In this document: in pieces, positions 32,850 through 49,810 of the stretch
How positions within the stretch are numbered: position 1 is the stretch's first letter
Layout: every line of letters starts with the position of its first letter
Source: an uncultured Candidatus Saccharibacteria bacterium
GTDB taxonomy: Bacteria; Patescibacteriota; Minisyncoccia; UBA6257; 2-01-FULL-56-20
Length of the DNA stretch: 49,810 nt
Direction of reading: 5' to 3'
Assembly (NCBI GenBank): GCA_964555255.1
Contig: CAZKRG010000002.1
Span: forward strand, 6,866 to 56,675
Made by a program: the position numbers and the translations under genes
The notes under the pieces: generated by a model
What the model was told of the DNA's origin: nothing
The model's database searches: none
The model's input: only the letters and a program-made list of their open reading frames with translations

Positions 32850-32855
32850 GGTTTT

Positions 32856-32897
32856 AGCATAAAGCATAGGATTGGAAATTGGAAATTGGAAATTGTA
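32856..32897. repeat. six consecutive tandem heptamers
   Basis: AGCATAA AGCATAG GATTGGA AATTGGA AATTGGA AATTGTA. These fill the pilB/yebC divergent spacer. Confidence 0.85.
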
Positions 32898-32907
32898 TGC
32901 TACCCGC

Positions 32908-36862: not shown

Positions 36863-37975
36863 TCATGTTTTGAGAATTGGTTTTATAATATACCGGAATG
36901 AGGCATCTCTTAAGGAGCGGAAGAGGGCGGGGGTATGCTCGTCATTTAATCCTAGCGTTACCTCCTCCCCTCGTAGCACTCGCAGCACATCGTATACATA
37001 TCGGCCGTTGAAAAGCACCTCTCCTCCTTCTCCCTGTCCCTTCGCGGGGAGCATATATATGTTTTCTCCTACGCCCTGCGCGGAGGAGCTTATTTCCACC
37101 GATTTCCCCTCTTTCGGAAATGAAAGTTTTATCTCACTTGTCCGATCATGAAATACGCTCGCTAATTTTAGAGCTTCCATACATTCCTCTCGCCGCACTG
37201 TGAGTTCACTTTGAAACGAGGTGGGGATGATTGCTGCATATTCCGGAAACTTCCCATCCACGAGGCGAGAAATGCACTCTACACTTCCTCCTGTTACTAG
37301 AATTTGATTTTCATCCATTTGGATCCTCACGGTTTCGCCTTCTTTGAGGAGCCGGAGGAGCTCCTGGCTGGTTTTAAGTGGGATGAGCGCTTGGAAACCT
37401 TCGGGGATGTTTTTAGAAACAAACCGAGAAGGGAGGACTTGCTGCTCGGCGAGGCGAAAGCTATCAGTAGCAGCGAATAGGAGGAGGTGGGGGGCAACGT
37501 GAAGAAGCACACTATTTAATTCCGGTCGAAGATCGGAAAATTCCGTGGCAATGAGTACATTCCCTAGAGCTTCTTTCAACACTTCCGCTTTACATTCAAT
37601 ATAAGCATCTTTGTTTTTTATCTTGGGAATAATCGGAAAGTCTTCTGGGGGAAGACCTTGAAATGTAGCTCGGTAATTATCAGAGGTAAGTACTATTCCC
37701 TGCCCTTTTTTTTCCAAGTTCACCCTTTCGCTTCGCAGCACACTCAACACTTCTCCAAAGGCGCGCGCAGGAATAGTTACTTTCCCATTCTCTACCACTT
37801 TTCCTGATACTCCATATTGGATTGCTATTTCTAAATTCGTACCAATCAGTGTGAGTTTATTATTATTTGCCTCAATTAAAATGTTTTTAAGAATAGGCAA
37901 ATTTTCTCCTCCTGCAGCACGACTTACGGCTGCCACTCCTTCCATAAGAGACTCTCTTAATGTTACTACTCTCAT
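36863..37975 (-). CDS. dnaN: DNA polymerase III beta sliding clamp
   Basis: 370 aa immediately downstream of dnaA, with typical N-terminal sequence (LPILKNILIEANNNKLTLIGTNLEIAI). Confidence 0.9.
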   Translation of the reverse strand: MRVVTLRESLMEGVAAVSRAAGGENLPILKNILIEANNNKLTLIGTNLEIAIQYGVSGKVVENGKVTIPARAFGEVLSVLRSERVNLEKKGQGIVLTSDNYRATFQGLPPEDFPIIPKIKNKDAYIECKAEVLKEALGNVLIATEFSDLRPELNSVLLHVAPHLLLFAATDSFRLAEQQVLPSRFVSKNIPEGFQALIPLKTSQELLRLLKEGETVRIQMDENQILVTGGSVECISRLVDGKFPEYAAIIPTSFQSELTVRREECMEALKLASVFHDRTSEIKLSFPKEGKSVEISSSAQGVGENIYMLPAKGQGEGGEVLFNGRYVYDVLRVLRGEEVTLGLNDEHTPALFRSLRDASFRYIIKPILKT

Positions 37976-38107
37976 AATAATAAATAATACATATTAATAT
38001 ACTAATTACTGTTATTGTTACTGATGGGAAAGTGATTATGGGGATATATTGGATTACGACTTATTAATGAATGGTTTTTATGAAATTTATGTGGGGATAT
38101 TTTCTGA
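37976..38107. other. candidate oriC segment (AT-rich dnaA-dnaN spacer)
   Basis: A strongly AT-rich 132-nt spacer carrying two copies of TGGGGATAT (38039-38047 and 38092-38100). The complement ATATCCCCA matches the TTATCCACA DnaA box at 7 of 9 positions. Confidence 0.35.
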
Positions 38108-39466
38108 TCAGCTCTTGTATATCATGTCGCGTATCATGAGGATTTTTTGGTTCAGTAGGGCGAACTTATTCACATCTCGGTTGATTTTTTCGTACGCATG
38201 GATAGCAGTGGTATGATCTCTCCCCAACTTTTCCCCAATAGAGGGATAGGATAACTCCAACATATCCCGAAGGAGATACATCGCAATCTGACGAGGTTCT
38301 ACCACTTCCTTTCGCCGATTATGGCTTAGGAGATCGTCCACGGTGATGCTAAAAAACTCGGCGATGGATTTAAGGATCTGAGCGTCGGTTACGCGCCTTG
38401 AGAGATTTTGTGCGGACTTTTCGATGATTTCCTCCGCGGCCTCCTCATTAATCAAAGTTTGTTTCCGCTCTTGATAGAAGAGGATTTTATTTAGTATTCC
38501 TTCTAATTCACGGATGTTTTTCTTCACCCGCTTGGCTACTATATCTACCACCCCATCAGGGAGCACTTTCCCCATTTCTTGGAGTTTGCTTTTAATAATT
38601 GCTACGCGCATTTCATACTCTGGATAACTAATATCTGCAATAAGACCTCCTTCGAAACGAGATCGAAGGCGTTCTTCTAGGGTTGGAATGGATTGAGGTG
38701 GACGGTCAGATGAGATGATTATTTGTTTATTATGCTCGTAAAGTGCATTAAAGGTGTGAAAAAACTCTTCTTCGGTTTTCTCTTTCCCTCCAATAAACTG
38801 GATGTCGTCGATAATGAGAAGATCTACGTCCCTATATTTCTTTTTGATATCCTCCATGCGCTTGTTGCGAATGGCCCATACTACATCACTTGTAAATTTC
38901 TCAGAGGGTACGTATTTTGGTCGAATCCGGTTTTGATATTTCTTTTTCACCTCATTTCCAATTGCTTGGATAAGATGTGTTTTCCCAAGGCCTACCCCGC
39001 CGTACACGAAAAATGGGTTATATTTAGTGCTCACATCATTCACAATCGCAGAGGCAGCAGCGAACGAGAGCTCGTTTGAGGGACCTACTACGAACGACGA
39101 GAGGGTGTAGCGGGGGTTGAGGTTGGTTTCAGGGTCTATTTTAAGTTCCAGTTCCATAGAAGGATCCATTTCTATTGGATTCCGTGGAGGCGCAACTGCT
39201 TTCTCTATCAAATTTGTATGTTGGGGAGCCACCACGAACTCTAACTTCCTCGCAGAATTATCGAAATTCCTGATAATTCCAAGAATATTCTTTTGATACT
39301 TGTTCGCTACCCATTCCTTGGCGAAATTATTAGGAAGAGCGATGTAGAGTGTACCTTCTTGTTTATCTACAAGGCGGCTTTGTTTGAGCCAGGTAGAAAA
39401 ATTTGCTCGAGAAAGTTGCACTTCCATTTCAGCAAGCGTTGACTGCCACAGTTCTTCTAAGTTCAT
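38108..39466 (-). CDS. dnaA: chromosomal replication initiator DnaA
   Basis: 452 aa with Walker A GGVGLGKTHL, LLIIDDIQF and a C-terminal DNA-binding domain (DHTTAIHAYEKI). Confidence 0.95.
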   Translation of the reverse strand: MNLEELWQSTLAEMEVQLSRANFSTWLKQSRLVDKQEGTLYIALPNNFAKEWVANKYQKNILGIIRNFDNSARKLEFVVAPQHTNLIEKAVAPPRNPIEMDPSMELELKIDPETNLNPRYTLSSFVVGPSNELSFAAASAIVNDVSTKYNPFFVYGGVGLGKTHLIQAIGNEVKKKYQNRIRPKYVPSEKFTSDVVWAIRNKRMEDIKKKYRDVDLLIIDDIQFIGGKEKTEEEFFHTFNALYEHNKQIIISSDRPPQSIPTLEERLRSRFEGGLIADISYPEYEMRVAIIKSKLQEMGKVLPDGVVDIVAKRVKKNIRELEGILNKILFYQERKQTLINEEAAEEIIEKSAQNLSRRVTDAQILKSIAEFFSITVDDLLSHNRRKEVVEPRQIAMYLLRDMLELSYPSIGEKLGRDHTTAIHAYEKINRDVNKFALLNQKILMIRDMIYKS

Positions 39467-39639
39467 CCTGTTTTAGAGAAAATTATAGTGGCGACTTACC
39501 CTCCGCCTCTTTCTAATGAGTTCATTGTAGAAGGAATCGGGAAGCCGTCAAAGAGCACGAAAATCGCGCGTCTGTGGATTTACTGTGTATAGCGCTACTT
39601 TTTTTGCAAAATAATCATCTTTATGGTAGAGTGAAGCCC

Positions 39640-39774
39640 ATGTCGCAGACTTATCAACCAAAAAAAAAGAAACGAGCTCGTACACACGGTTTTCTTTCAA
39701 GGCAGCGCCGCCCGGGAGGAAGGGCGGTGTTGCGTCGGCGGCGGGTGAAACAGCGCTATTCTCTTACGGTTTAG
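39640..39774 (+). CDS. rpmH: 50S ribosomal protein L34
   Basis: From ATG 39640 the protein reads [44 protein letters not shown] (44 aa). The longer ORF call adds a non-homologous leader. Confidence 0.9.
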
Positions 39775-39784
39775 GTCTTCTTCC

Positions 39785-40123
39785 ATGCTTTCTCGGAGAA
39801 ACAGAGCCCCCGTTTCCCTCCTCCTTCGAGGACGACTTCCTATTTTTTATTCTTCTCCTTTCTTTAAGCTTCTTGTGGGGCAGAATAGTTTAGGACATAA
39901 TCGATTCGGAGTGGTGGTGTCTGTGGCGGTAGACCTCCGGGCTACAGAGCGGCATCGGCTTAAGCGGGTTTTGATCGAGGCGGTCCGGGAATGGCCGGCA
40001 TTTTCTTCGGATTTTGTTTTTATCGTGGGTAAGCGCGCGCGCGGAGTTTCTCGAGAACTCCTGCGATTAGAGGTGGATCGAGCACTTGCGGCCGCAACAA
40101 AATTATCAATTATTAATCGCTAG
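39785..40123 (+). CDS. rnpA: RNase P protein component
   Basis: 112 aa following rpmH, with the RNR-like motif ERHRLKRVLIEAVRE. Confidence 0.85.
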   Translation: MLSRRNRAPVSLLLRGRLPIFYSSPFFKLLVGQNSLGHNRFGVVVSVAVDLRATERHRLKRVLIEAVREWPAFSSDFVFIVGKRARGVSRELLRLEVDRALAAATKLSIINR

Positions 40124-40134
40124 CCACTGAGCTT

Positions 40135-40872
40135 ATGGCGTACCTCTATACTACATTTCTTTATCAGCCCCTTCTCAATGCGCTTGTGTTCCTTTATGCC
40201 ACCGCAGCGTTCCGTGACTTGGGGGTGGCAATTATCCTCCTTACAGTGTTTATCCGTCTCATCCTTTTCCCGCTTTTCCAAAAAGGGGTTCGTCATCAGG
40301 CGGTCATGCAGCGATTACAGCCGGAGATTAAGAAAATTCAGACCCAGCATGCGAACGATCGGGAGCGTCAAGCAAAAGAGATGATGGGACTCTATAAAGC
40401 CCATCGCCTTAACCCTTTTTCGGGCATCTTTATTCTTCTTGTTCAATTGCCTGTGCTGATTGCACTCTACCAAGTGTTCTCGGCCGCTTCGAATCCGCAG
40501 GCACTTGCCAATGGGATTTATCCTTTTGTGCAAATTCCCTCCGTGCTCAATACTACTTTTCTTGGCTTGATTAATTTAAAATCCCAGAGTATCTTCATGG
40601 TGGGTTTGGCGGCGTTGGCTCAGTATTTTCAAGGCCGCGCGGCCCTTCCTCCTCGGGTGCCAGGGGTTTCCTTGAGTGAGGCGGAGCGTGTAGGAAGAAA
40701 TATGGTATTTCTTGCGCCGGTACTTACCCTCTTTATTTTCTGGAGATTTCCTGCAGCTATCAGTCTTTATTGGGTGGTTACTTCCTTTTTTTCTCTTGGT
40801 CAGCAGCTCATCATTAACCGAGAGTTGCGCCGGGAGCGCGACCTTTTGGAGGCGGCAAATGCCGCGAAATAA
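40135..40872 (+). CDS. yidC: membrane protein insertase YidC (short form)
   Basis: 245 aa with LPLFQKGVRHQAVMQRLQPEIKKIQ...MMGLYKAHRLNPFSG...LVQLPVLIALY; conserved rnpA-yidC-jag order. Confidence 0.9.
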   Translation: MAYLYTTFLYQPLLNALVFLYATAAFRDLGVAIILLTVFIRLILFPLFQKGVRHQAVMQRLQPEIKKIQTQHANDRERQAKEMMGLYKAHRLNPFSGIFILLVQLPVLIALYQVFSAASNPQALANGIYPFVQIPSVLNTTFLGLINLKSQSIFMVGLAALAQYFQGRAALPPRVPGVSLSEAERVGRNMVFLAPVLTLFIFWRFPAAISLYWVVTSFFSLGQQLIINRELRRERDLLEAANAAK

Positions 40873-40874
40873 AA

Positions 40875-41321
40875 ATGATTCCTATGGAATTTCAAACCTT
40901 TGTGCAGCAACTTTTAGAACATATGGGATTCCGCGATTTTCGGGTGGAAGTGAAAGAAAGTACGCGTGGCGAAATTTTTATTTATGAGAATCAGGCATTG
41001 GTGAAAGAGTACTTGCCTGTGCTGGTCGCGAGTATTAACCATCTTATCCAGCTTATTGCTCGCAAGCATGCAGTAGACGCGGTGGTTTTCGATGTGAATA
41101 ACTATCGGCAGGAGCGCGAAAACCTTATCGCAGAACTTGCGAAAGCAGCTGCAAAAAAAGTACATGTAACCAAGTCTGCGGTGTCGCTTCCCGCGATGAA
41201 TTCCTACGAGCGGCGCATTGTACATACCGCGCTCGCGGTGCATCCGGAGGTAATCACCGAGAGCATAGGCGAAGGAAAGGAGCGGTGCGTGGTAGTGAAG
41301 CCGATTGAAAACGGGAAGTAG
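40875..41321 (+). CDS. jag: Jag-like KH/R3H RNA-binding protein
   Basis: 148 aa with the R3H motif MNSYERRIVHTAL; lies downstream of yidC. Confidence 0.85.
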   Translation: MIPMEFQTFVQQLLEHMGFRDFRVEVKESTRGEIFIYENQALVKEYLPVLVASINHLIQLIARKHAVDAVVFDVNNYRQERENLIAELAKAAAKKVHVTKSAVSLPAMNSYERRIVHTALAVHPEVITESIGEGKERCVVVKPIENGK

Positions 41322-41394
41322 AATGCGAGATTTTCTTGCTGAAATTTTTTCTTATTTCCACCGTTGTGGTTCGCACCGTTCATCTTCTCTTTTC

Positions 41395-42591
41395 CTACTT
41401 TGGTATTTGAAGTGAATACAATTTTTGATCTTGGCGGTTGATGAAAAAGAGAGCGGAGTTATATATGCGGATGCTGGTGCCGTCGATCAGAGTATTGGTG
41501 TCTACCCTTATGGGTTGGATCCCTCCCGTCGAGAGATTTATTTCATAGAAGCTATCATCCGTGAGTATTGCTCCTTTGTAGTAATCATCGGGCAGAGTTG
41601 CGAGTTCGAGCGCAGTAGTGTCTTTGGGTACTGCACACACAAGGAATCTCGAAGTGCTACTCGTAGATTGTGCACTTCCAAAGCCGCATTTTTCGGGGAG
41701 TGTGAGGAATGAAAAGTTTTGTTGCACTTGTCCTTGCGGCGAAAGAAGATTCAAGGTACCTCCCTTACTATTTCGACCCGCTATGAAGGCGAGGCCTTCG
41801 GAGGCTGTCCCTTTTCCCCATGCGAGCACGAGCCCGTTCTGATCTTCGGCAAAGGGAGCGAGGAGTTTTGATTTGAGGTCCACTTCCCAAGCATTGTTGG
41901 GAAGGAGGCCGCTGGGGGTGTCCCGAAGAATGAGTGTATTGGCTGAGGGCCAGGCGAGCGCGAGGTCGATGAGGCGCACCTGGAGAACAGTTTGCGGTTT
42001 TGGTTTGGCAACGCCCATATCCAAGATGCCTACTGTGGTTTCTCCTCTTTTCTCAATAAGGTATGCCAGTCGGTTATCTGTGGGCGACCATGCGGCATCG
42101 TTTATGTTTAGGGGAAATGCGTTCCAGGTGCGCGAGCGGACGTCGAACACTCCTGCTTGAAGGCCTGCCGTGTCGCCGAAGATGGCGAGAAGTTTGGAAC
42201 CATCGGGGGCGAAGATAATTTTTTGGAGATTTTGAATTGGAGTGGGGCTTACGGTGTTCGATGCGAAGCCTCGGATTTCGGTGATCTTGCCGTCCAGTTC
42301 TATAGCAAGCACTGCGCCGTCGGGCTCGAGGGTGAAATCGCGTACCGGGTTGGGGTATACCACTTTGAGTGACGACGGAGCAGTGGGCGGAGGAGCGATG
42401 CTCCTTGAGGGGGTGGAGGAGGGAGCAGTAGAAGTGGTGTTTTTAAGCGAGGTGAGGGGCAAGTTTGCGGGAGGTTCTTCTTCTGAAGTGGGGGGGGGCG
42501 GGGGAAGGTTTTTATAACGGAAGAAAAAGAACGCAGCGACGATGATGCCTATCGCGAGGAGAAAGATAAGAAGATAGAAGAAGCGGCGCAT
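41395..42591 (-). CDS. membrane-anchored Pro/Ser/Thr-rich linker plus PD40/TolB-like beta-propeller protein
   Basis: Starts at ATG 42591 (MRRFFYLLIFLLAIGIIVAAFFFF), 4 nt after the upstream stop. Repeats such as PDGAVLAI, PDGSKLLAI and SPTDNRLAYL suggest a propeller. A C9 tract encodes part of the PPPPP run. Confidence 0.6.
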   Translation of the reverse strand: MRRFFYLLIFLLAIGIIVAAFFFFRYKNLPPPPPTSEEEPPANLPLTSLKNTTSTAPSSTPSRSIAPPPTAPSSLKVVYPNPVRDFTLEPDGAVLAIELDGKITEIRGFASNTVSPTPIQNLQKIIFAPDGSKLLAIFGDTAGLQAGVFDVRSRTWNAFPLNINDAAWSPTDNRLAYLIEKRGETTVGILDMGVAKPKPQTVLQVRLIDLALAWPSANTLILRDTPSGLLPNNAWEVDLKSKLLAPFAEDQNGLVLAWGKGTASEGLAFIAGRNSKGGTLNLLSPQGQVQQNFSFLTLPEKCGFGSAQSTSSTSRFLVCAVPKDTTALELATLPDDYYKGAILTDDSFYEINLSTGGIQPIRVDTNTLIDGTSIRIYNSALFFINRQDQKLYSLQIPK

Positions 42592-42595
42592 ATTA

Positions 42596-43726
42596 TTAGC
42601 AGCGTAGGCCCAGTCGCTGGCAGCTACCTTGTATGTCATCCACGGCTTTTTTTCGTGCTTGTTCAATTTGTCCCTGCGCGAAGGGAGAAAGATTGGTATC
42701 TGTGGTGCGTATTTGAGCGGTTTTATTGATATTACTAATAGTACTTTTCACTTGGTCTTCCACGGCTACTTGAAAAGCTCCCTGAACGCTTAGGTCTGGG
42801 TTATTCTTTCGTATGGAGTTTATTATTGTTTTAGCGTCGTCTGGGAGGTCTTTCATAGAAATATCTGGACTATCCCATTGCACAGAGGTCATAACTGATT
42901 GGACGGCTTGAGCTTCGGCATTAAACTGGTCTGCGGAAAGATTTTGTATTGCCTGCTCGTTTGAATAGCCTGCATAGCCGCTCGATTCTTCGTCTGCCAC
43001 GCTTAAGCCTGAGGCTAATCTACTAATTTCAGAATTGTAGTTGCTGTTAATCGTGTTTATATTTCTATTCGTTTCTGCCAAGTTTCCTTGTTGGGCGGCA
43101 TATAATGTATTTCCAAGGGAGATTTTCGATGTCGCGCTTAGGCGTAGGACTTCTGATTGGGCGAAGGCATCACTCGATTGTTGCATGAGACTGTCTCGTT
43201 CAGGACCGGGAGTTTTATTTATTGCTTGCTGGTAAAAATCTTGGGATTCTGCGTATTTTTTATCTGCCGCGGAGGCATCGTTTTGCGCGTTTTTTTCCCA
43301 AGTGGCGTTGGGGTTATAGAGCGTTGCATCAAACGACAGATTTGTTTTAAGAGCGCTCGTGTCGATGTCTTTTAACGTAAAGGATTCGTTGGGATTTTTG
43401 GAAAGAATTTGAGGGTTGATGAGGTTAAGAAGTATTCCTGCCCCTAGGAGGAGTACTAATCCCAAGAGTGCCTGGGTGATGTGGTCTTTCCCAATGCTTT
43501 GCTTTTCGGGATTTCCCGCGGAGAGGATATACGTCAATCCTCCGTAGGTAATGGCTCCGAATGCGAGGAGGCCTGCGGTAAGCAAGGCGAATTGATATAA
43601 ATTTCCTACTACTCCTATAAGGTTGGTGGGGGGGTTTGTGCCGGGGATGTTTGTGTTGATGGTTGCCGCCAAGGCAGGGGCTGCGAGAAGTCCAGATATC
43701 GCAACTATGTATGCAGGAATTTTCAT
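42596..43726 (-). CDS. VirB2/TrbC-pilin-like N-terminal module fused to a long Q/N/S/A-rich domain
   Basis: Signal peptide MKIPAYIVAISGLLAAPALA. Two hydrophobic helices are separated by a short charged loop (LYQFALLTAGLLAFGAITYGGLTYIL-SAGNPEKQSIGKDH-ITQALLGLVLLLGAGILLNLI). About 270 aa of low-complexity polar sequence follow. Confidence 0.5.
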   Translation of the reverse strand: MKIPAYIVAISGLLAAPALAATINTNIPGTNPPTNLIGVVGNLYQFALLTAGLLAFGAITYGGLTYILSAGNPEKQSIGKDHITQALLGLVLLLGAGILLNLINPQILSKNPNESFTLKDIDTSALKTNLSFDATLYNPNATWEKNAQNDASAADKKYAESQDFYQQAINKTPGPERDSLMQQSSDAFAQSEVLRLSATSKISLGNTLYAAQQGNLAETNRNINTINSNYNSEISRLASGLSVADEESSGYAGYSNEQAIQNLSADQFNAEAQAVQSVMTSVQWDSPDISMKDLPDDAKTIINSIRKNNPDLSVQGAFQVAVEDQVKSTISNINKTAQIRTTDTNLSPFAQGQIEQARKKAVDDIQGSCQRLGLRC

Positions 43727-44394
43727 TTGATTCCAAGCGTGAACAACTTTTGAACGGCTTCGAGTGGACGTAAGGGGTTGTTTACCCTAAGTTCTACGTT
43801 CACCGAGGATCCCGAGGGACCTTGGATGACGGCGTTTAATATGTCCGGAGTTCCTCCGGCGCCGCTTGCGGTTTCTCCATTCACTGTCCAGGTAAATAGC
43901 AGGTTTTCTATGAAATCCGTATTGAAGAAGTACGGCAGACCACGGAGGGTGGTTGAGGAGTTGCTTACTACGTTAGGGCCTTGAATTATCACCTCGGGAT
44001 ATATTACAGGAATCGTTACTTGCTTGATGAGGCCTCCTCCTTGATAGGTGGGGATTTCGACGCGGAGCGCGATTGGATTAAACGCATAGTCGGGGGCGCG
44101 AAGGGACATTATTTGTTTGTTGGTGGCCGAGAGCACCTGGTGATTGTCGGTGTACCAGTAGATGGTTTGCTTGGAGAGGTCGACTGATTGGCCTTGGTCG
44201 AGGACTTCTAATGAGGCATCAATGAGAGAGTTCGCAGTGGGGAGAGCTTTTCCTTGATAGCCATTCGGGACGAATGTGCGGGTTCTCCAGGTTATGAAGA
44301 CTTCCGGGGTGGAAGCGGCAAAAACTTGGGGGAGATGTATTCCTCCCCAGAGCGCAGTGAGGGTTAGCACGAGTAGGAATACTTTTCTTCTCAT
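43723..44394 (-). CDS. secreted protein (hypothetical)
   Basis: Signal peptide MRRKVFLLVLTLTALWGGIHLPQVFA-AS. The mature part looks beta-rich. ATGA overlap with the downstream gene. Confidence 0.55.
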   Translation of the reverse strand: MRRKVFLLVLTLTALWGGIHLPQVFAASTPEVFITWRTRTFVPNGYQGKALPTANSLIDASLEVLDQGQSVDLSKQTIYWYTDNHQVLSATNKQIMSLRAPDYAFNPIALRVEIPTYQGGGLIKQVTIPVIYPEVIIQGPNVVSNSSTTLRGLPYFFNTDFIENLLFTWTVNGETASGAGGTPDILNAVIQGPSGSSVNVELRVNNPLRPLEAVQKLFTLGIK

Positions 44395-44410
44395 AGGTAT
44401 ATTATATCTC

Positions 44411-45145
44411 CTACAAAGATTCTCGCTTTCGGATGTCTTCCACAGGGGGACGGCGGGATGAGTCTTCTTCTTTTTCCTCCTTTTCTTCGGGTTCAGGAAG
44501 GTTTTGCATAGTGTCTTGGAGTTGTTCTAGGGGATTTTTTTCCACCCCGAACGCTTCTTCTGAAATTTGAGAACCGGCTTCCTCGGCGGAATCCGCAGCA
44601 GTTGCCGCGGATTTCCCAACGCTTCCCGTTGCGCCCGCGCCTTCCGCCGCAGCACCGCCTACTGCTCCGGCACCTTCCGCCGCTGCAGTCGCTCCTGCGG
44701 CTTCACCTCCTGCCACTGCTCCCGCCGTGGCTCCGCCTACTCCCGCTGCCGCTCCTCCCCCGGCGGCTGCTGCAGCCGCTCCTGCACCACCCGTGGCAAC
44801 GCCCACTGCCACGATTGTAGCTACTTTCGCCACTTTAGGGTTATTGGTAACGAACACTCCTATGAGAAATGCAATAGTTCTCCCAGGAATACCAAAAAGT
44901 TCAAGAACTGCGTCAGTAATCTGGAGGAACGTTGTTCCTCCGAACTTTCCAAGTTTCAACCTGAACCAAAATATCATTATCCATCCTACTAAGAAATGCA
45001 GACTTTCCACTCCCCCGGTTACCACTAGTCCAATTACTGGAATTCCAAACGCTATGATCGCCACGATATCTGCGACATCGTCTAGTCCCGCTATCATCGT
45101 GCCGAGTACTATTTCGGTGATACTGAATTTTTTATTTTCTTCCAT
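44411..45145 (-). CDS. polytopic membrane protein with Ala/Gly-rich tract and acidic tail (hypothetical)
   Basis: An N-terminal region of about 110 aa with 3-4 hydrophobic helices, then about 70 aa of A/G repeats, then an acidic C-terminus (PEPEEKEEKEED). Confidence 0.55.
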   Translation of the reverse strand: MEENKKFSITEIVLGTMIAGLDDVADIVAIIAFGIPVIGLVVTGGVESLHFLVGWIMIFWFRLKLGKFGGTTFLQITDAVLELFGIPGRTIAFLIGVFVTNNPKVAKVATIVAVGVATGGAGAAAAAAGGGAAAGVGGATAGAVAGGEAAGATAAAEGAGAVGGAAAEGAGATGSVGKSAATAADSAEEAGSQISEEAFGVEKNPLEQLQDTMQNLPEPEEKEEKEEDSSRRPPVEDIRKRESL

Positions 45146-45284
45146 AGTGGCGGATAATTATGAAGCAGGTTCAGTTTTTACGATGTCCCGAAGCCCAGAA
45201 ATTCCGCAATATTTTGGACATCACAAGACGCAGACATTGCTTTTGGATTCCTCTCCGCCTACTGGCAGATTGGAATGACATAAC

Positions 45285-47000
45285 CTAAACACCACTCCCC
45301 TCTTTCTTTTCGTTCAAAAGAGTTTCGGGGTTGGTGGTGACAAGTTGATCTTCGAAGTATGAAGACACGATTCGGATTGCGACATGTTTCTTTCCTGCAA
45401 AAAAGAGGCCGCAGCCCACTTCCGCGCCGAGGAGGAGTCCTTTCTCGGCTTCGGTGAGGTCGAAGGCCTTGGCTATCACATCAATTGTGGCGGGAGCTTG
45501 TTTCAAAAGGAGTTGGAGCGAGGAGTTGGTGATGATCGGCCGGCCGTAGGGAGAGCGAAGAAAATCTTCCACGTCTTGCGTAATGGTGGAAACCCCAAGG
45601 TAGTATTTCCGCGCGCGTTTCACGAGACCGAAGAGGAAAGTGGCGGAATCCTCGTTTTTCATCATAATCCATGCCTCGTCAATAATAAGAATCCGGCGTT
45701 TGAGTTTTGCCCGGATAAGATTCCAGATGAAATTTAGAATGACGAACATGGCGATCGGGCGGAGTTCTTCTTCGAGGTCGCGGATGGAGAAAACAATCAG
45801 ACGATTCCCGATGTCGATGTTCGTGTGCTGGTCTACAAAACCTGCAAAGGAACCCTTTGTATATTTATACAGACGCTCGGCCATTGCCCGGCCGCCTTCG
45901 AGATTGCGGAGCACGGTCTCGAGATCTTCCAAAAGAGGAGGTTCTTTTCCGGTGAATTCCTCTCCCGCCACGATTTCGCGCGAGGCGTACGTTTCCGTAA
46001 TCGCTCGATCGAGAAGCGAGTCTTCTTCGGGAGCAAGTTTTCCCAGCATAAGTTTCACGAGACTCGCGCAGTTCACGATGTGCGAACGGAGGATGTCTGA
46101 TGCCGATTCCCCTTCAGGGATGATGGGGATGTCGAACGGGTTTACGTGTTCTTTTGAGGAGAGGGAGATGTTGAAGAAACTGCCTCCCAGTGCCCGCGCC
46201 ATGCGTTCATATTCGTTTTCTGGGTCAATCACAATCACCTCGCTTCCTACCATGAGCGAGCGGATAATTTCAAGTTTGGTGGCATACGACTTGCCGGAAC
46301 CGGATTTCGCAAAGATTACTTGGTTCGCGTTTTCGAGCGAGAAGCGATCAAAAATGACCAAGTTATTGTTGTGGAGATTGATGCCATACATGATTCCCTC
46401 GTTCGAAGTGAGGTCTTCGGAAACGAATGGGAAGAATGAGGAGATAGGACTTGAATTCATCGGGGTGTGGATATCAATCTTGTCGTCGCCAAAAGGAAAG
46501 ATGGAAAGCAGTCCCTCAAGTTGCTCAAAGAGCGCCGGTTTGATATATACCAATTTCGCTTCCATAAGCGAGATGATTTCACTTTCGAGTTTGGTGAGTT
46601 CCTCTTTGGTATCCGCATAGATGGCAATGTAAACTGCGGTGTTAAAAAGTTTTTCCTGGGATTGTTGCAGCGTATCTCGCAGATCCTCCACATCTTTGAA
46701 GGCAGTTTCGAGGATGGGATCACGTACGAGTCCCTTTTCTTCAGCGTCGGAGATTTGCGATTCCAGTTGCGCCGCTTTTTTCCGGAGATTTTTCAAGGCT
46801 TCGCCGGTATCTACGGGAGTGATGAAGATGGAGACATCGAGGAGATTTGGGAGGTTTACAAGCGGTTCGAACCAACCCGTGGCAAGATAGCGGGGGTAGG
46901 AAAGGACAAAAAATGTTTTCGCGAGTTTGTCTCCCATTTTTACATAATTGGGGGTTACCTCTACTCCAGCAGGAGCAATTATTTTAGCGATGTCGTCCAT
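45285..47000 (-). CDS. virB4: VirB4/TrbE/PrgJ-family type IV secretion ATPase (C-terminal two-thirds)
   Basis: 571 aa with Walker A FAKSGSGKSYATK and Walker B RRILIIDEAWIMM. The N-terminal IIAPAGVEVTPNYVKMGDKLAKTFFVLSYPRYLATGWFEPL matches the mid-region of Gram-positive-type VirB4 proteins. Confidence 0.85.
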   Translation of the reverse strand: MDDIAKIIAPAGVEVTPNYVKMGDKLAKTFFVLSYPRYLATGWFEPLVNLPNLLDVSIFITPVDTGEALKNLRKKAAQLESQISDAEEKGLVRDPILETAFKDVEDLRDTLQQSQEKLFNTAVYIAIYADTKEELTKLESEIISLMEAKLVYIKPALFEQLEGLLSIFPFGDDKIDIHTPMNSSPISSFFPFVSEDLTSNEGIMYGINLHNNNLVIFDRFSLENANQVIFAKSGSGKSYATKLEIIRSLMVGSEVIVIDPENEYERMARALGGSFFNISLSSKEHVNPFDIPIIPEGESASDILRSHIVNCASLVKLMLGKLAPEEDSLLDRAITETYASREIVAGEEFTGKEPPLLEDLETVLRNLEGGRAMAERLYKYTKGSFAGFVDQHTNIDIGNRLIVFSIRDLEEELRPIAMFVILNFIWNLIRAKLKRRILIIDEAWIMMKNEDSATFLFGLVKRARKYYLGVSTITQDVEDFLRSPYGRPIITNSSLQLLLKQAPATIDVIAKAFDLTEAEKGLLLGAEVGCGLFFAGKKHVAIRIVSSYFEDQLVTTNPETLLNEKKEGSGV

Positions 47001-47003
47001 GGT

Positions 47004-47031
47004 AGTGAAAAGTGATTAGTGATTAGTGAGA
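47004..47031. repeat. four tandem heptamers in the spacer between the two VirB4 parts
   Basis: AGTGAAA AGTGATT AGTGATT AGTGAGA. Confidence 0.85.
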
Positions 47032-47045
47032 AGCAGAGCGTTACT

Positions 47046-47735
47046 TTATGGTTTTTGGATTTCTGGTTTTTCTTCAGGGAGGGTTAAATCCTTGCGCTCA
47101 ACGGATTCTGGGTTATAGAAGTTGTAGAGTATTTCGGCAAGCGCTTGATTGTCGAGCTGCGCGGCTTCGAGTTCAATTGTGGCGAGGCCTTCAATTATTT
47201 GGTTGGTACGCTGTGAGAGTTGTTCCAAATGTCCCGCAAAGTCACTTTCCTTTTTTTCTTTTTCGGCGGCTTCAGCGGCCGCATTAGTGTTTGGCTTAAG
47301 GAACGGAATGAAGCGCAACATGCTTTTTTTCGAGGGAAGAGAAAGTCCGCCTATCCAAGGCACCACCACGAGGAACGTTTTCTCCATAATCGCATTCTTT
47401 TCGACGAACCCGCGGATGAAGGCGCGGTATTCGGCATTTTGGTTCCGGAGGAGGGGTGAAGGCTCGTTGCGCTCGAACGACTCCAGTTTTGCAAGATATT
47501 TCGAGATGTTGATTCTCCTTGAATGGATGATGATCTGGAGCGCGAAGTCGATGGTGTTTAAAAAGTTTTGGTAGCCGGCGGTAATGATATTTTGCTCCGT
47601 TTCTGAACGGAGGGCGAAGTTTAGGCCGTTCACCATAAGAATCGCGCGCAAGCTTCCGTCTCTAAGGACGAGGACATTATCGCGAATCTCGCGTACCATG
47701 ACGAGATCTTGGGCGTTGGCGAAGTCTTTTGCCAT
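47046..47735 (-). CDS. VirB4 N-terminal-domain-like protein (separate ORF)
   Basis: 229 aa. AQDLVMVREIRDNVLVLRDGSLRAILMVNGLNFALRSETEQNIITAGYQNFLNTIDFALQIIIHSRRINISKYL resembles the N-terminal domain normally fused to VirB4/PrgJ ATPases. Confidence 0.6.
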   Translation of the reverse strand: MAKDFANAQDLVMVREIRDNVLVLRDGSLRAILMVNGLNFALRSETEQNIITAGYQNFLNTIDFALQIIIHSRRINISKYLAKLESFERNEPSPLLRNQNAEYRAFIRGFVEKNAIMEKTFLVVVPWIGGLSLPSKKSMLRFIPFLKPNTNAAAEAAEKEKKESDFAGHLEQLSQRTNQIIEGLATIELEAAQLDNQALAEILYNFYNPESVERKDLTLPEEKPEIQKP

Positions 47736-47740
47736 AGGTG

Positions 47741-48163
47741 TTAGGTGTTAGATTGCAGATTAGATGCGGACTTCGGTTTTCTTATTGTACCTTTTTCTTG
47801 CGTTAATTTCTCGCCGAGTTTTCTCAGTAATATATTGAGCATCTTTTGCACTTCTTCGAGGAGTGGTTCTGTTCTGCTAAAATCAGCCGATTTATACGAT
47901 CTATACATGCGTTTTGAAATGATGAGTTGTGTTTCAAACTCTGCGGAAGAAGCGTCGGCGAAACGTGAGAATTGGAGATATTCGGGGAGATCTTTTCTAC
48001 GGGATTCCTCCGCTATATTCGATGGTATCGATGCTGCAGCTCGGCGCGTTTGTATGGACAGCCCATGCGTATCTTCTTTTGAAAACTGACTGGTAAGGTT
48101 ATAAATTTCTTCTACGAGGTCGATGGATTTTTTCCATGCGGTGAGTTTTTTGTAAGATTGCAT
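47741..48163 (-). CDS. four-helix-bundle protein (23S rRNA intervening-sequence protein / Avd-like family)
   Basis: YKKLTAWKKSIDLVEEIYNLTSQFSKEDTHGLSIQTRRAAASIPSNIAEESRRK...FSRFADASSAEFETQLIIS matches the family signature. Confidence 0.85.
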   Translation of the reverse strand: MQSYKKLTAWKKSIDLVEEIYNLTSQFSKEDTHGLSIQTRRAAASIPSNIAEESRRKDLPEYLQFSRFADASSAEFETQLIISKRMYRSYKSADFSRTEPLLEEVQKMLNILLRKLGEKLTQEKGTIRKPKSASNLQSNT

Positions 48164-48190
48164 TTTAAGTCAAAACCTATAATCTAACAT

Positions 48191-48694
48191 CTATCTATAA
48201 TCTACTCTTCGGGCCGCGTGGAGCTCTCCCGAGGACTTGCGGAAAAGGGAGAAACTTTCGGCGTTATGGAGAAACATTCTTGGGGAAATTTTTCGGAAGC
48301 TGCCGGTTTGGAGTTTTTGCCAAGTTCTCTGAAGTGCGATACCCGCGAGTATCTTTTCGAGAGAAGTGTCGCCCATTTCCGTTTTCATTCCTTGTTCCTT
48401 GTTTTCTGCTTCTTGTTGTTCCGGTTTCCAGATGTAGGTTTGCGGTTTCCAAAAATAGAAGAAGGCAGCGCGCGTGATCGCCGAGAGCGGGCGGCCGCCC
48501 ACGCGGACAACGGCAAATCCAATCCCTGCTGCAAGAACGGGCAGGGAGAGGAGAATCCATATCCAAAACTGCATGACGAAATAGAGCATGAGGGAAATTC
48601 CTCCCGCGATGCCTATATAGATAAATTGCTTGAGACTCAACGGGCCTACGATCTTATCTTCGGTTTCAATGAATTGGGGGACCTGAAATTGCAT
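48191..48694 (-). CDS. PrgI-family (VirB3-like) membrane protein
   Basis: MQFQVPQFIETEDKIVGPLSLKQFIYIGIAGGISLMLYF followed by a second TM segment, the typical PrgI-family N-terminus. Confidence 0.75.
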   Translation of the reverse strand: MQFQVPQFIETEDKIVGPLSLKQFIYIGIAGGISLMLYFVMQFWIWILLSLPVLAAGIGFAVVRVGGRPLSAITRAAFFYFWKPQTYIWKPEQQEAENKEQGMKTEMGDTSLEKILAGIALQRTWQKLQTGSFRKISPRMFLHNAESFSLFRKSSGELHAARRVDYR

Positions 48695-48716
48695 GTGCCA
48701 GGGAGTAGAAACTCGA

Positions 48717-48986
48717 CTATTTTCTTTTTTGGTAAAAATATTCTTTTAACATTCGTTTTAACAGTCTAGCGCCTTGGCTGGTTTTCAGCCACTTCTCGCG
48801 ACGTTGGGAGTCTTTTTTGTTTCGGTAAGCTTCATAGTGTATCAGTTGCCAAGGCCGGTGACTTTTTGTAGAGGTTGTCCAGCCACGATTATGTTCTACA
48901 AATCGGCGTTTCAAATCATCACTATTCCCTACGTAAGGATCCCCCACTTTTCACTTTCTAATATATATATAGACGTAGTGGAACAT
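48717..48986 (-). pseudogene. GIY-YIG nuclease family gene with one in-frame TGA (48951-48953)
   Basis: ATG at 48986 gives MFHYVYIYIRK-TGA-KVGDPYVGNSDDLKRRFVEHNRGWTTSTKSHRPWQLIHYEAY...REKWLK. The GIY (YVYI) and YIG (YVG) halves lie on opposite sides of the stop. Confidence 0.7.
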
Positions 48987-49002
48987 AATCGCAGTCGAGT
49001 TT

Positions 49003-49810
49003 TTACTCTCTGGTAGATTTCGGTGGAGGTGGCTTCGGCGGTTCGTCCATATTGAGCGATGGGGCGATATCTACTTTGCTCCCTTGCGGAGGAGGCGGAA
49101 TATCCACGAATGTGGGAGGAGGAGGCAAGTCTACAGATGAGCCGCTTGTGGGCGGGAGGGGAATGTCAACGTCTTGCGGTTTCTTTTTCCCAAAGAGCCG
49201 TGCAAAAAATCCCAGCCTAGAGGTTCTAGGCGGTGGCGGTGGCGGTGGCGGCAAAACTTCATCTGTGCTTGTTGCTTCTGGGGGGGTCGGTGGTTCATCG
49301 GCTGGTGGAGTCAGAAGTTCTCCGGTGGGTGGGGTGGGAGGTTGGTCGATATCGGGAGAAAAGATATCTGCTTCGAATGAGTCGAGCGGGCTTTTAAGAT
49401 CACCGTAGTGAACCACTCGTGATTGTTTTTTCTTTGCCTCTTGCCTCTCATCTCTTGTCTCTTCCGCGGTATTCCCTATTTCTATATTTGCCTGCGGAAT
49501 CGGTTGCATCTCTGGAGCCGAGGGGCCATATTCTTCTGGTTTCGTGTCGAGTTTGAAATTTTCTATCTGCGGGAGCGAGGGTGCGGCGGGTTCCTCGTGG
49601 ATGATGAAGGGAGAGCTTTGAGGAGGAAAGGGAGAGGAAACCTCCGGTTCACTTTTTTCTCCTAATTTATCCAAACCTTCGAGGGTAATGGGTTTTGTCT
49701 CACTCGCCTCGCTGGAGCTTTGGCGAAGTGAACTGGAGCCTTCGATGAAGGCGGGGGTTTCTTTAAAGAAGGAATTCTCGCCGCTCTCAGGGCGGAGTTT
49801 TTCGAGGGTG
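49003..49810 (-). CDS. proline-rich protein, 5' end outside the window
   Basis: The frame is open from the window edge; the TTG at 49674 is only the first start-like codon. Repeated PPTPP and PPPP(PPPP) blocks; first visible gene of the T4SS-like operon. Confidence 0.6.
   Translation of the reverse strand, partial: TLEKLRPESGENSFFKETPAFIEGSSSLRQSSSEASETKPITLEGLDKLGEKSEPEVSSPFPPQSSPFIIHEEPAAPSLPQIENFKLDTKPEEYGPSAPEMQPIPQANIEIGNTAEETRDERQEAKKKQSRVVHYGDLKSPLDSFEADIFSPDIDQPPTPPTGELLTPPADEPPTPPEATSTDEVLPPPPPPPPRTSRLGFFARLFGKKKPQDVDIPLPPTSGSSVDLPPPPTFVDIPPPPQGSKVDIAPSLNMDEPPKPPPPKSTRE

Follow-up and report, generated by a model that had tools for sequence, protein, structure and literature searches.

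A probable Paceibacteria version of the Patescibacteria-clade type IV secretion system beside dnaA, hosting two selfish cassettes

We found that positions 41395-49810 of the window (the whole stretch of 49,810 nucleotides analysed here) very probably encode the 3' two-thirds of a chromosomal, non-conjugative type IV secretion system (T4SS), the Paceibacteria version of the Patescibacteria-clade T4SS, vertically inherited and derived from the Gram-positive (MPF-FATA) class of conjugation systems. The genome is Liptonbacteria-like; Patescibacteria are ultrasmall bacteria living on other cells. The original prediction had described ten co-directional, tightly packed minus-strand genes, and all ten open reading frames and their gaps, including that of 139 nt, were found in place. 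It had taken them for a resident chromosomal apparatus centred on VirB3 and VirB4 rather than a conjugative element, in agreement with the fixed ksgA-to-jag locus of relatives and the absence of mobility genes. On the other hand, the system is not of a new kind, since it matches the T4SS already known from Wang 2023 (Cell; PMC10633639) and Quinonero-Coronel 2025 (Microb Genom; PMC12102498), and reviewed in PMC12857230. The identities of the components, their synteny and conservation in sequence, the lack of mobility genes and the architecture of two guest cassettes were observed directly. The features are as follows.

36863-41321: flanking core block, dnaN to jag, from translations: dnaN 36863-37975 (minus), dnaA 38108-39466 (minus), rpmH ending at 39774 (plus), rnpA 39785-40123 (plus), yidC 40135-40872 (plus), jag 40875-41321 (plus)
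41395-42591, minus: N-terminally anchored TolB-like beta-propeller, 398 aa from ATG 42591 (profile search)
42596-43726, minus: VirB2-like T4SS pilin with a putative helical extension of about 270 aa, 376 aa in all (PF18895)
43723-44394, minus: secreted or anchored protein with two predicted Ig/FN3-like beta-sandwich domains, 223 aa (AlphaFold2)
44411-45145, minus: small polytopic membrane protein, 244 aa, about four transmembrane (TM) segments, Ala/Gly tract, acidic tail (TM prediction)
45146-45284, minus: spacer of 139 nt without recognised feature (folding, Rfam)
45285-47000, minus: VirB4 ATPase body, CD1110/MPF-FATA type, 571 aa (NF045971, PF19044, PF12846)
47046-47735, minus: TrsD-like protein, the VirB4 N-terminal domain as a separate 229-aa protein (HMM matches under cut-off)
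47742-48193, minus: guest cassette 2, four-helix-bundle (23S rRNA-IVS protein) gene in 20-nt inverted repeats (TIGR02436)
48191-48694, minus: PrgI/VirB3-like membrane protein, 167 aa, two TM segments (PF12666)
48693-49018, minus: guest cassette 1, GIY-YIG pseudogene in 26-nt inverted repeats (PF01541, repeat search, folding)
49003-49810, minus: U3, 3' part of a conserved Pro-rich protein without TM segments (orthologues in relatives)

Profile-HMM searches upheld both central assignments. VirB4 scored 391 bits against NF045971 (VirB4-like conjugal transfer ATPase, CD1110 family; cut-off 325) and carries the predicted Walker A (GSGKS, 46287-46301) and Walker B (IIDEAW, 45669-45686) motifs, while PrgI, with TM segments predicted at residues 23-41 and 45-63, reached 33.0 bits against PF12666 (gathering score 27) and is present in 75 of the 80 related loci. 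The gene upstream of VirB4, predicted to resemble its N-terminal domain, indeed matched NF045975 (N-terminal region, E 1e-9), NF041427 TrsD (E 8.7e-8) and the N-terminus of TIGR00929 (E 8.4e-7), all three under their cut-offs, as well as PF11130 (E 5e-5); its orthologues in relatives carry PF26593 (TraC-like). A homology search with VirB4 returned at least 8000 scored candidates, all at E ≤ 1e-20. Among the matches listed, most were about 570-590 aa long and 76-90% identical, with few fused forms of 792-793 aa, which indicates that the split VirB4 is the normal state; in our synteny sample, 5 of 80 loci (L024, L031, L033, L054 and L055) encode TrsD and VirB4 as one protein of 781-795 aa. Those listed homologues whose source was named came from Patescibacteria or Paceibacterota. 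The best plasmid-encoded matches were only 30-37.5% identical; 1735 of the 2378 plasmids with matches were typed as conjugative, and Firmicutes and Actinobacteria provided the nearest relatives outside Patescibacteria. Identity levels, together with the published tree, thus suggest that this VirB4 belongs to the Patescibacteria clade.

Downstream of VirB4, the 139-nt spacer folded no better than shuffled sequences (z = -1.16), had no Rfam match, and is missing in two relatives (L004 and L001), in which VirB4 is followed at once by the next gene. That next gene encodes the small polytopic protein, for which about four TM segments were predicted and the expected Ala/Gly tract was measured (73% Ala+Gly over residues 111-185; the tract is lineage-specific). 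Most relatives have a protein of 100-300 aa with two to four TM segments at this position, and no consistent family match emerged among 54 members; hhalign found it unrelated to the pilin family. The protein that follows, modelled by AlphaFold2 from a 32-sequence alignment (pLDDT 92.7), is predicted to consist of an N-terminal helix and two beta-sandwiches. By Foldseek the model resembles tandem Ig/FN3 arrays of a generic kind (E down to 3e-6, TM-scores no higher than 0.46), and the VirB8/NTF2 fold was not among the 50 best matches listed. It occupies the same position in 52 of 80 loci, with W80, P154 and W169 invariant.

The pilin-like fusion protein was likewise borne out: residues 40-103 matched T4SS_pilin PF18895 in the HMM search (30.3 bits, cut-off 26.6), with a further match to NF045849 (E 1.3e-3). 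The pilin part (residues 1-107) comprises a signal peptide and two TM helices, and homology to relatives, which span 88 to 1035 aa, mostly ends near residue 107. The C-terminal extension is thus lineage-specific and variable, and possibly helical, as the low-confidence AlphaFold2 single-sequence model (pLDDT 55) was all-helical. The last gene of the operon encodes the predicted membrane-anchored beta-propeller: a profile of 46 orthologues matched TolB structures (E 1.3e-12), and the protein has one N-terminal TM segment and invariant K301, C302 and C319. Its start is most likely ATG 42591 (MRRFFYLL...), 4 nt past the pilin stop, which agrees with the orthologues; the frame is open up to an overlapping TTG at 42666, a start that we judged less likely. 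Of the five proteins first described as unrecognisable, three were assigned a fold: a TolB-like propeller, a tandem Ig-like protein and, with low confidence, a helical pilin extension.

At the other end, the Pro-rich protein (20.5% proline, no TM segment) is 5' partial, as predicted, since its frame is open to base 49810, the window end. It had no match in Pfam or NCBIfam but is 40-46% identical to orthologues directly upstream of PrgI in L001, L002 and L004; in close relatives the protein measures 400-480 aa. The operon is therefore not the 'minimal' machine that had been proposed: the window cuts it, and relatives carry three more conserved upstream genes, for a large secreted adhesin-like protein (U1), a polytopic protein with 7-10 TM segments (U2) and the full Pro-rich protein (U3). 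For the present genome, the presence of U1 and U2 and of the missing 5' part of U3 is extrapolated from these loci. U2 gave weak matches to TrbL/VirB6 in 3 of 45 members (best E 6.3e-6) and to TrbL_4 in 2 of 45, and hhalign found no match to a Firmicutes candidate; it may tentatively be regarded as VirB6/TrbL-like.

Two of the ten genes lie outside the machine. The GIY-YIG and four-helix-bundle genes had been listed as its partners, but they sit in sporadic cassettes found in a minority of relatives at shifting positions; both are selfish guest inserts. The GIY-YIG domain match held (PF01541, 35.7 bits), whereas the gene is not intact: its frame, from ATG 48986 to the stop at 48717, contains an in-frame TGA (48951-48953), and TGA terminates 6 of 34 window genes and so is an ordinary stop codon here. 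Inverted repeats at 48693-48718 and 48993-49018 (85% complementary) bracket this pseudogene; they form a stem in both the MFE and the centroid fold (z = -3.48), and none of 100 shuffled sequences was as stable. L001, L002 and L004 lack the cassette, and the same family occurs in the same spacer only in L048 and L067. The second cassette holds the four-helix-bundle gene (47741-48163), whose predicted nature was confirmed by PF05635 (23S_rRNA_IVP, 93.5 bits) and TIGR02436 (90.6 bits), between repeats at 47742-47761 and 48174-48193 that also pair in both folds. It is missing from L001; other loci have its family in different spacers and, in one case, on the other strand. Of 26 stem-bracketed cassettes of this sort in the examined loci, 25 lie just upstream of virB4.

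We conclude that both cassettes are selfish elements of the IVS type, inserted in intergenic spacers. At 326 and 452 nt they resemble 23S rRNA intervening sequences (428-444 nt), such as that of Coxiella burnetii (PMC4990558), with terminal stems of 20-26 nt against 28 bp in Coxiella, a four-helix-bundle (S23p) or GIY-YIG frame in the loop as in rRNA intervening and insertion elements, sporadic distribution, and forms without a reading frame among relatives. Non-intron insertions in CPR rRNA encode GIY-YIG or 23S_rRNA_IVP proteins (bioRxiv 10.1101/2024.02.27.582315). In contrast to IVSs, these cassettes, known here from sequence, occupy spacers of a protein-coding operon rather than rRNA, and their arms are often short TAG-containing tandem motifs.

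The cluster adjoins the jag-yidC-rnpA-rpmH/dnaA block, as claimed, and the gene order is repeated across 80 species-level Paceibacteria genomes (including Lipton-, Harrison-, Wolfe-, Jorgensen-, Colwell-, Zambryski- and Terrybacteria) as ksgA-U1-U2-U3-PrgI-TrsD-VirB4-small membrane protein-Ig protein-pilin-propeller-jag-dnaA. PrgI, TrsD and VirB4 are colinear in 72 of the 75 loci that have the complete trio, the propeller is the last gene before jag in 51 of 80, and dnaA lies downstream in 44 of the 53 loci with enough sequence, with ksgA upstream in 50 of 55. The flanking genes are 61-83% identical (rnpA 35%; rpmH was outside the comparison) to their L001 counterparts, annotated as DNA_pol3_beta, Bac_DnaA, Ribonuclease_P, 60KD_IMP and R3H, with an L34 (rpmH) gene at the corresponding site. 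The cumulative GC-skew minimum falls at about 37-39 kb. Median identity among related loci is higher for VirB4 (64%) than for DnaA (56%), YidC (43%) and DnaN (39%), which points to strong purifying selection. As predicted, no relaxase, VirD4 or integrase is in view (the 20 largest other window frames are all housekeeping), and neither VirB8-like nor VirB1-like components were found in the window. Likewise, no relaxase, coupling protein (T4CP) or integrase lies within about 10 kb in three relatives with precomputed Pfam neighbours (one on an 827-kb contig), where only housekeeping genes surround the operon.

One might suspect a decayed ICE or plasmid remnant, by chance beside dnaA, because the families of VirB4, PrgI, TrsD and the pilin all derive from conjugation systems and the closest VirB4 relatives outside Patescibacteria sit on conjugative plasmids. 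Such an origin is extremely improbable given the shared place and order across 80 genomes, a VirB4 more conserved than DnaA, the mobility-free flanks of the three relatives, and an operon GC content indistinguishable from that of the rest of the window; the guest GIY-YIG is the sole pseudogene of the region. The locus is fixed beside the replication origin, and the machine is part of the vertically inherited core. Nor do we favour a working conjugation system served by an unlinked relaxase and coupling protein, which we regard as very unlikely. T4SSs with a pilin are classically conjugative and most Patescibacteria genomes encode VirD4-like proteins, usually far from virB4, so that an unlinked coupling protein may exist here too, but relaxases were found in only 103 of 3035 Patescibacteria genomes (PMC12102498). 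Moreover, neither an oriT-like element nor a relaxase gene was found in the 49.8-kb window, and in S. epibionticum the T4SS is essential while the coupling-protein homologue is not.

An importer of host DNA, RNA or other macromolecules, comparable to archaeal Ced or Helicobacter ComB, is a less remote reading, although still an unlikely one. Patescibacteria lack nucleotide biosynthesis, VirB4-based importers are known, and a 2026 preprint makes the case for host RNA as a food source and ties VirB4 to macromolecule transfer. The NCBIfam match to CedB (E 5e-12) is weak, however; CedB and CedD matches lie far under cut-offs (45 versus 700 bits) and are due to the common ATPase fold. No CedA-like partner emerged, the sequence does not tell in which direction transport runs, and loss of comEC in S. 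epibionticum ends competence but not viability, so that ComEC DNA uptake is not the essential role.

For the non-conjugative core machine that we prefer, we infer a mode of assembly, pilus formation and a role towards the host as follows. VirB4, split into the TrsD-like protein and the ATPase body, would dock on a membrane platform in which PrgI/VirB3 and the small polytopic protein join a VirB6/TrbL-like protein whose gene lies just past the window. VirB4 could then provide the energy to pull the VirB2-like pilin out of the membrane and assemble it into a filament or conduit that crosses the wall, with the tandem-Ig protein and the anchored propeller as possible lineage-specific extracytoplasmic parts. 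The upstream variable adhesin-domain protein and the variable pilin extension may contact the host cell. Transport could be export of effectors or import of host macromolecules, and the machine would serve host-dependent growth rather than conjugation.

The operon appears, by sequence, to descend from monoderm MPF-FATA conjugation machinery of the CD1110/pGO1 type. As in Firmicutes systems (CD1110; C. perfringens pSXP-169_2, our L084; pGO1 trsC-trsD-trsE), PrgI immediately precedes VirB4, VirB4 passes the CD1110 model cut-off, a TrsD-like protein is present as in the pGO1 subclass, and the monoderm architecture lacks VirB7, VirB9 and VirB10. Unlike them, with which VirB4 shares only 30-37% identity, the window's system is vertically inherited at a fixed chromosomal position and has a VirB2-like pilin, which Gram-positive systems lack. 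The DNA-processing module (relaxase, coupling protein, cell-wall hydrolase) has been lost: MobC, relaxase, VirD4 and SLT hydrolase, all in the canonical CD1110 operon (L084), are missing here. With Ced and ComB the system shares a VirB4-family ATPase in a non-conjugative chromosomal setting, but it has a pilin and PrgI, and no ComB-specific partner was found.

The closest likeness is to the Patescibacteria-clade T4SS. A survey of 3035 genomes described a clade with TrsD, VirB3, VirB2-like pilins and scarce relaxases, sited in Paceibacteria near dnaA/dnaN/rnpA/ksgA/rpmH (PMC12102498). The window shares its chromosomal place close to dnaA, ksgA, rnpA and rpmH, an MPF-FATA-descended VirB4 with a separate TrsD-like protein and PrgI/VirB3, a VirB2-like pilin beside virB4, and a cluster without relaxase or coupling protein. 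In the Saccharibacterium S. epibionticum, the T4SS genes SEML1_0006-0019, including pilins and with neither coupling protein nor relaxase, are essential for epibiotic growth (PMC10633639); essentiality is known from Saccharimonadia only, which form another class and carry other accessory genes. Tubular structures at the parasite-host interface, possibly T4SS pili, are described in a 2026 preprint. The Paceibacteria-type accessory set is absent from the main text of both papers, and TolB, GIY, four-helix and intervening sequences did not occur in the searched text of PMC12102498. In contrast to the described systems, the present operon has no peptidase or lysozyme genes after virB4, and its accessory set combines a single pilin whose C-terminal extension is long and variable, instead of an array of short pilins, with a TolB-like propeller, a tandem-Ig protein, a Pro-rich cytoplasmic protein and a large PKD- or discoidin-domain protein.

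[quoted passage not shown] The VirB4 body scored 391 bits with NF045971, 'VirB4-like conjugal transfer ATPase, CD1110 family' (cut-off 325), which places it in the MPF-FATA/CD1110 type, MPF-FATA being a Gram-positive conjugation T4SS type. The PrgI/VirB3 homologue that adjoins the virB4 region and has two transmembrane (TM) segments reached 33 bits with PF12666 (cut-off 27), while the pilin domain, at residues 40-103 of a 376-aa protein encoded three genes downstream of virB4, reached 30.3 bits with PF18895 (cut-off 26.6). The GIY-YIG family and the four-helix-bundle '23S rRNA-intervening sequence protein' family were also above their curated cut-offs. The Walker motifs of VirB4 are located as follows.

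46287-46301, minus strand, VirB4 Walker A motif (GSGKS)
45669-45686, minus strand, VirB4 Walker B motif (IIDEAW)

Upstream of VirB4, a 229-aa TrsD-like ORF matched the TrsD/TraD family (NF041427, E 8.7e-8) and models of the VirB4 N-terminus (E 1e-9 to 8e-7), in both cases below cut-off, and its orthologues carry PF26593. Natural TrsD-VirB4 fusions of 781-795 aa occur in five loci. Therefore, the two ORFs of the window are the halves of one canonical VirB4. The Pro-rich ORF at the other end, whose frame is open up to the window end, is the 3' part of U3, one of three genes (U1, U2 and U3) conserved upstream of PrgI in relatives. The start of the propeller gene was corrected, ATG 42591 being the most likely. 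Between VirB4 and the next gene, a 139-nt spacer (45146-45284) contains local hairpins and is missing in the closest relatives; it has no Rfam match and folds no better than shuffles. A promoter and terminator scan of the operon, with fewer promoter-like sites than in shuffles and no convincing internal terminator, is uninformative on operon structure.

When the window proteins, together with three that a close relative encodes upstream, were mapped onto 80 species-level Paceibacteria loci including as much as 10 kb of each flank, the order obtained was ksgA, U1, U2, U3, PrgI, TrsD, VirB4, a small protein with 2-4 TM segments, the Ig-like protein, the pilin, the propeller, jag-yidC-rnpA-rpmH and dnaA-dnaN. 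PrgI-TrsD-VirB4 are colinear in 72/75 loci, dnaA lies downstream in 44 of the 53 loci reaching far enough, and ksgA lies upstream in 50/55; gene order near jag and dnaA is thus conserved in related genomes. Median identity is highest in the neighbourhood for VirB4 (64%), against 56% for DnaA, 43% for YidC and 39% for DnaN. VirB4 identity to the species-genome relatives ranges from 55 to 92%, and the closest of these genomes, a Candidatus Liptonbacteria MAG, is 92% identical in VirB4 and 90% in DnaA. At least 8000 candidates were scored for the VirB4 body, every one with E <= 1e-20; among the matches listed, homologues were ~570-590 aa long and 76-90% identical, and every named source was Patescibacteria, Paceibacterota or Parcubacteria. 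In a search of 72,556 plasmids, the best VirB4 match among 2378 matching records was 37.5% identical, and the near matches were all CD1110-type VirB4s of Firmicutes and Actinobacteria. These identity levels strongly suggest that the window VirB4 belongs to a Patescibacteria clade, apart from the VirB4s of plasmids and ICEs.

The cumulative GC-skew minimum (region 36863-49810) lies at ~37-39 kb, at dnaN/dnaA, so that replication probably starts near dnaA, origins being usually found in the rpmH-dnaA spacer. The T4SS operon converges on jag, an orientation kept in all related loci. With an origin near dnaA, the T4SS would consequently be transcribed towards the origin, head-on to replication.

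The locus could instead be the remnant of an ICE, for which one would expect a patchy distribution and a variable location. We did not observe this, as the cluster is fixed from ksgA to jag across the 80 species genomes. The cluster genes and the 20 largest ORFs elsewhere in the window included neither a relaxase nor a coupling protein (VirD4/TcpA), and there was no integrase among the latter, which are housekeeping genes (PolX, Clp ATPase, Mur ligase, RuvAB, CTP synthase, Pol I, a PilB-type ATPase and PBP1 among them). Likewise, three relatives with precomputed Pfam annotation for every neighbour, one of them on an 827-kb contig, have only housekeeping genes outside the operon, and no relaxase, coupling protein or other mobility gene within ~10 kb. 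There is no GC shift at the cluster in the composition profile of the window, and a search of the cluster proteins for a VirB1-type cell-wall hydrolase gave no SLT, CHAP or M23 match. Given the fixed synteny across relatives, the high VirB4 conservation and the housekeeping-only flanks, we reject the ICE remnant; the locus is a vertically inherited, strongly constrained core operon. A VirB4-dependent DNA importer of the Ced type is not supported either, with 45 bits for NF041017 (CedB) against a cut-off of 700 and 20 bits for NF053655 (CedD) against 600; a CedA-like partner was not found. The original prediction of a resident, non-conjugative machine stands, but the machine is neither minimal nor new, since the window cuts the operon and the system has been published. 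The PilB-type ATPase of 680 aa (31173-33215, minus strand; T2SSE E 7e-120, MshEN domain) is a component of the type IV pilus apparatus; its gene and the T4SS operon are ~8 kb apart.

Five proteins of the cluster had been left without a recognisable family. For the propeller, a profile of 46 orthologues matches TolB structures (E 1.3e-12), and the protein has one N-terminal TM segment and two invariant cysteines. The AlphaFold2 model of the 223-aa protein, built on a 32-sequence alignment (pLDDT 92.7), consists of an N-terminal helix followed by two beta-sandwich domains; its Foldseek matches were tandem Ig/FN3 arrays of a generic kind, at low TM-scores, and the 50 best listed included no VirB8/NTF2 fold. 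Conservation of the pilin fusion is limited to approximately the first 107 residues, relatives' pilins ranging from 88 to 1035 aa, and its extension is predicted to be helical, at low confidence (single-sequence AlphaFold, pLDDT 55, of use for secondary structure only). The Pro-rich protein and the post-VirB4 membrane protein still have no family match in Pfam or NCBIfam (54 members scanned for the membrane family). By hhalign, the post-VirB4 membrane family has no similarity to the pilin family, and we discarded the single T4SS_pilin match among its 54 members as a probably mis-assigned neighbour. The Ala/Gly tract of the membrane protein is encoded (44560-44790) by GC-rich imperfect repeats, seven copies of 40 nt that are 60-100% identical to the reference copy; it is lineage-specific, and the low-complexity tails differ in the related loci L001 and L004. 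One possibility that we propose is a Paceibacteria-specific, wall-spanning structure, without counterpart in known T4SSs, built from the extended pilin, the tandem-Ig protein and the TolB-like propeller.

The absence of VirB6 had also been pointed out, which is correct for the visible part of the operon but not evidently for its upstream end in relatives. There, the polytopic U2 (7-10 TM segments) has PF04610 TrbL/VirB6 matches in 3/45 members (best E 6.3e-6) and TrbL_4 matches in 2/45. Weak as they are, these matches point one way, towards a VirB6-like identity; hhalign found no similarity between U2 and the membrane protein upstream of PrgI in a C. perfringens plasmid. U3 is Pro-rich and devoid of TM segments. 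U1 is secreted, has 325-1010 aa and one TM segment, and combines a conserved, cysteine-containing core with variable domains (PKD, discoidin, Big or BNR); DUF4141, on which the literature is uninformative for U1, matched in 4/46 members. From this domain make-up, U1 looks like a candidate host-binding surface adhesin of the system. PDB sequence-profile searches with U1, U2, the Ig-like protein and the pilin family gave nothing significant. Examples of U1, the first gene of the operon in relatives, are the following.

L001, 1815-4670, U1
L004, 1467-4499, U1
L085, 3119-5221, U1

Two of the ten genes are not parts of the machine. The GIY-YIG and four-helix-bundle genes are guest cassettes, which lie in intergenic spacers of the T4SS operon and not in rRNA genes, none of which was found in the window by Rfam.

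48693-49018, minus strand, cassette with the GIY-YIG gene
47742-48193, minus strand, cassette with the four-helix-bundle gene
Related loci bearing cassettes: L002, L004, L016, L022, L024, L026, L027, L038, L040, L047, L048, L052, L062, L064, L065, L067

The GIY-YIG frame starts at ATG 48986 and is interrupted between its GIY and YIG motifs by an in-frame TGA (48951-48953, codon 12); as TGA serves as a normal stop codon in this genome, a pseudogene is likely. The cassettes are bounded by inverted repeats of 26 nt (85% complementary) for GIY-YIG and 20 nt (80%) for the four-helix bundle, and the arms of both pair in predicted folds (z = -3.48 for the GIY cassette). Elsewhere, the arms are 18-42 nt long, differ in sequence by locus and often consist of short TAG-containing tandem motifs. 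A flanking-stem score of at least 13 was found in 12/19 homologous guest genes vs 0.2% of 1000 random spans. This stem evidence is per locus and not from alignment covariation: a consensus fold of 10 four-helix-bundle cassettes failed, their arms not being alignable in sequence. Empty spacers mostly measure 0-60 nt and occupied ones ~290-520 nt. The loop ORFs of the two window cassettes belong to the TIGR02436 and PF05635 (four-helix bundle) and PF01541 (GIY-YIG) families. Enlarged spacers with terminal inverted repeats and no ORF of 60 aa or more in L064 (8531-8833), L076 (9496-9889) and L030 (8379-8766) look like ORF-less or decayed cassettes. As the four-helix-bundle proteins resemble Avd, a diversity-generating retroelement was considered. 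It was rejected on the lack of a reverse-transcriptase domain among the proteins scanned and of a template/variable repeat pair in 41000-49810, and on Avd scores well below cut-off.

Both guest genes are missing from the close relative L001 and occur at different spacers in other loci. When the ORFs of 84 loci (1.52 Mb) were all searched with HMMs, 19 TIGR02436, 3 GxxExxY (TIGR04256) and 4 GIY-YIG guest ORFs were found, with at least one in 22/84 loci, and 24 of the 26 are co-oriented with the operon. Twenty-five of the 26 fall within 2.7 kb upstream of virB4, a stretch representing 13.9% of bases (binomial P = 8e-21, with HMMs seeded from this region, enrichment measured only against 20-kb neighbourhoods, and some insertions shared by descent, the window, L002 and L004 having a site in common). 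Tentatively, and with rather more doubt than conviction, we propose that selfish elements of the rRNA-IVS (intervening sequence) type preferentially land in the U3-PrgI, PrgI-TrsD and TrsD-VirB4 spacers; we hold the Paceibacteria-specific envelope structure, a separate matter, with the same reserve. The elements would be 300-520 nt long, closed by a locus-variable stem and carrying a four-helix-bundle, GxxExxY, GIY-YIG or no ORF. They would be passengers of a protein-coding operon, highly conserved and probably essential, and would be removed or tolerated at the RNA level; they might even serve the processing of the polycistronic transcript. If true, IVS biology would no longer be confined to rRNA but would reach protein-coding operons.

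The T4SS itself is an already known, published system, recognised since 2023-2025 and essential in the one species tested, to which the window adds one member. VirB4 was reported in 2,417/3,035 Patescibacteria genomes, mostly as one clade nested in MPF-FATA; the component most often accompanying it was TrsD, homologues of VirB3/PrgI and, near virB4, VirB2-like pilins were also reported, relaxases were very rare, and the Paceibacteria T4SS was placed close to dnaA, dnaN, rnpA, ksgA and rpmH (Quinonero-Coronel et al. 2025, PMC12102498). In S. epibionticum, the T4SS genes, which come without coupling protein and relaxase, include pilins and are essential for epibiotic growth by Tn-seq (Wang et al. 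2023, PMC10633639). A 2025 review describes the Patescibacteria systems as newcomers to the T4SS superfamily (PMC12857230), and a 2026 preprint reports possible T4SS pili at the parasite-host interface. The function originally guessed for the locus agrees with this published view (PMC12102498, PMC10633639), though it is not novel. By established T4SS knowledge, VirB4 hexamers would dock on VirB3 and VirB6, pull the pilin out of the membrane and power its polymerisation. Their extracytoplasmic partners would be the Ig-like protein and the anchored propeller, and host contact would be made by U1 and the variable extension of the pilin. These ultrasmall bacteria probably exploit their hosts through the T4SS. 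Our additions are a Paceibacteria component list with folds for formerly blank genes, a VirB4 more conserved than DnaA, and two operon genes that are IVS-like selfish cassettes clustering at the operon, which raises the question of their spread and tolerance beyond rRNA genes. What may be new is limited to the accessory set of Paceibacteria and the hot spot of cassettes.

A canonical CD1110 operon, on the C. perfringens plasmid pSXP-169_2 (MobC, relaxase, DUF3801, VirD4, two small proteins, PrgI, a 783-aa VirB4 and an SLT hydrolase) shows which genes were lost in the cluster of the window. For the cassettes, the known counterparts are the Coxiella IVS, of 428-444 nt with a 28-bp terminal stem and a four-helix-bundle loop ORF, cut out by RNase III (PMC4990558), and the non-intron insertions encoding GIY-YIG and 23S_rRNA_IVP in CPR rRNA genes (bioRxiv 10.1101/2024.02.27.582315); the main text of PMC12102498 does not mention cassette elements. 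Like the 23S rRNA IVSs, the cassettes have a terminal stem and a loop ORF of the S23p/four-helix-bundle family (or GIY-YIG, as in the CPR insertions). Unlike them, they reside in the spacers of a T4SS operon and not inside an rRNA gene.
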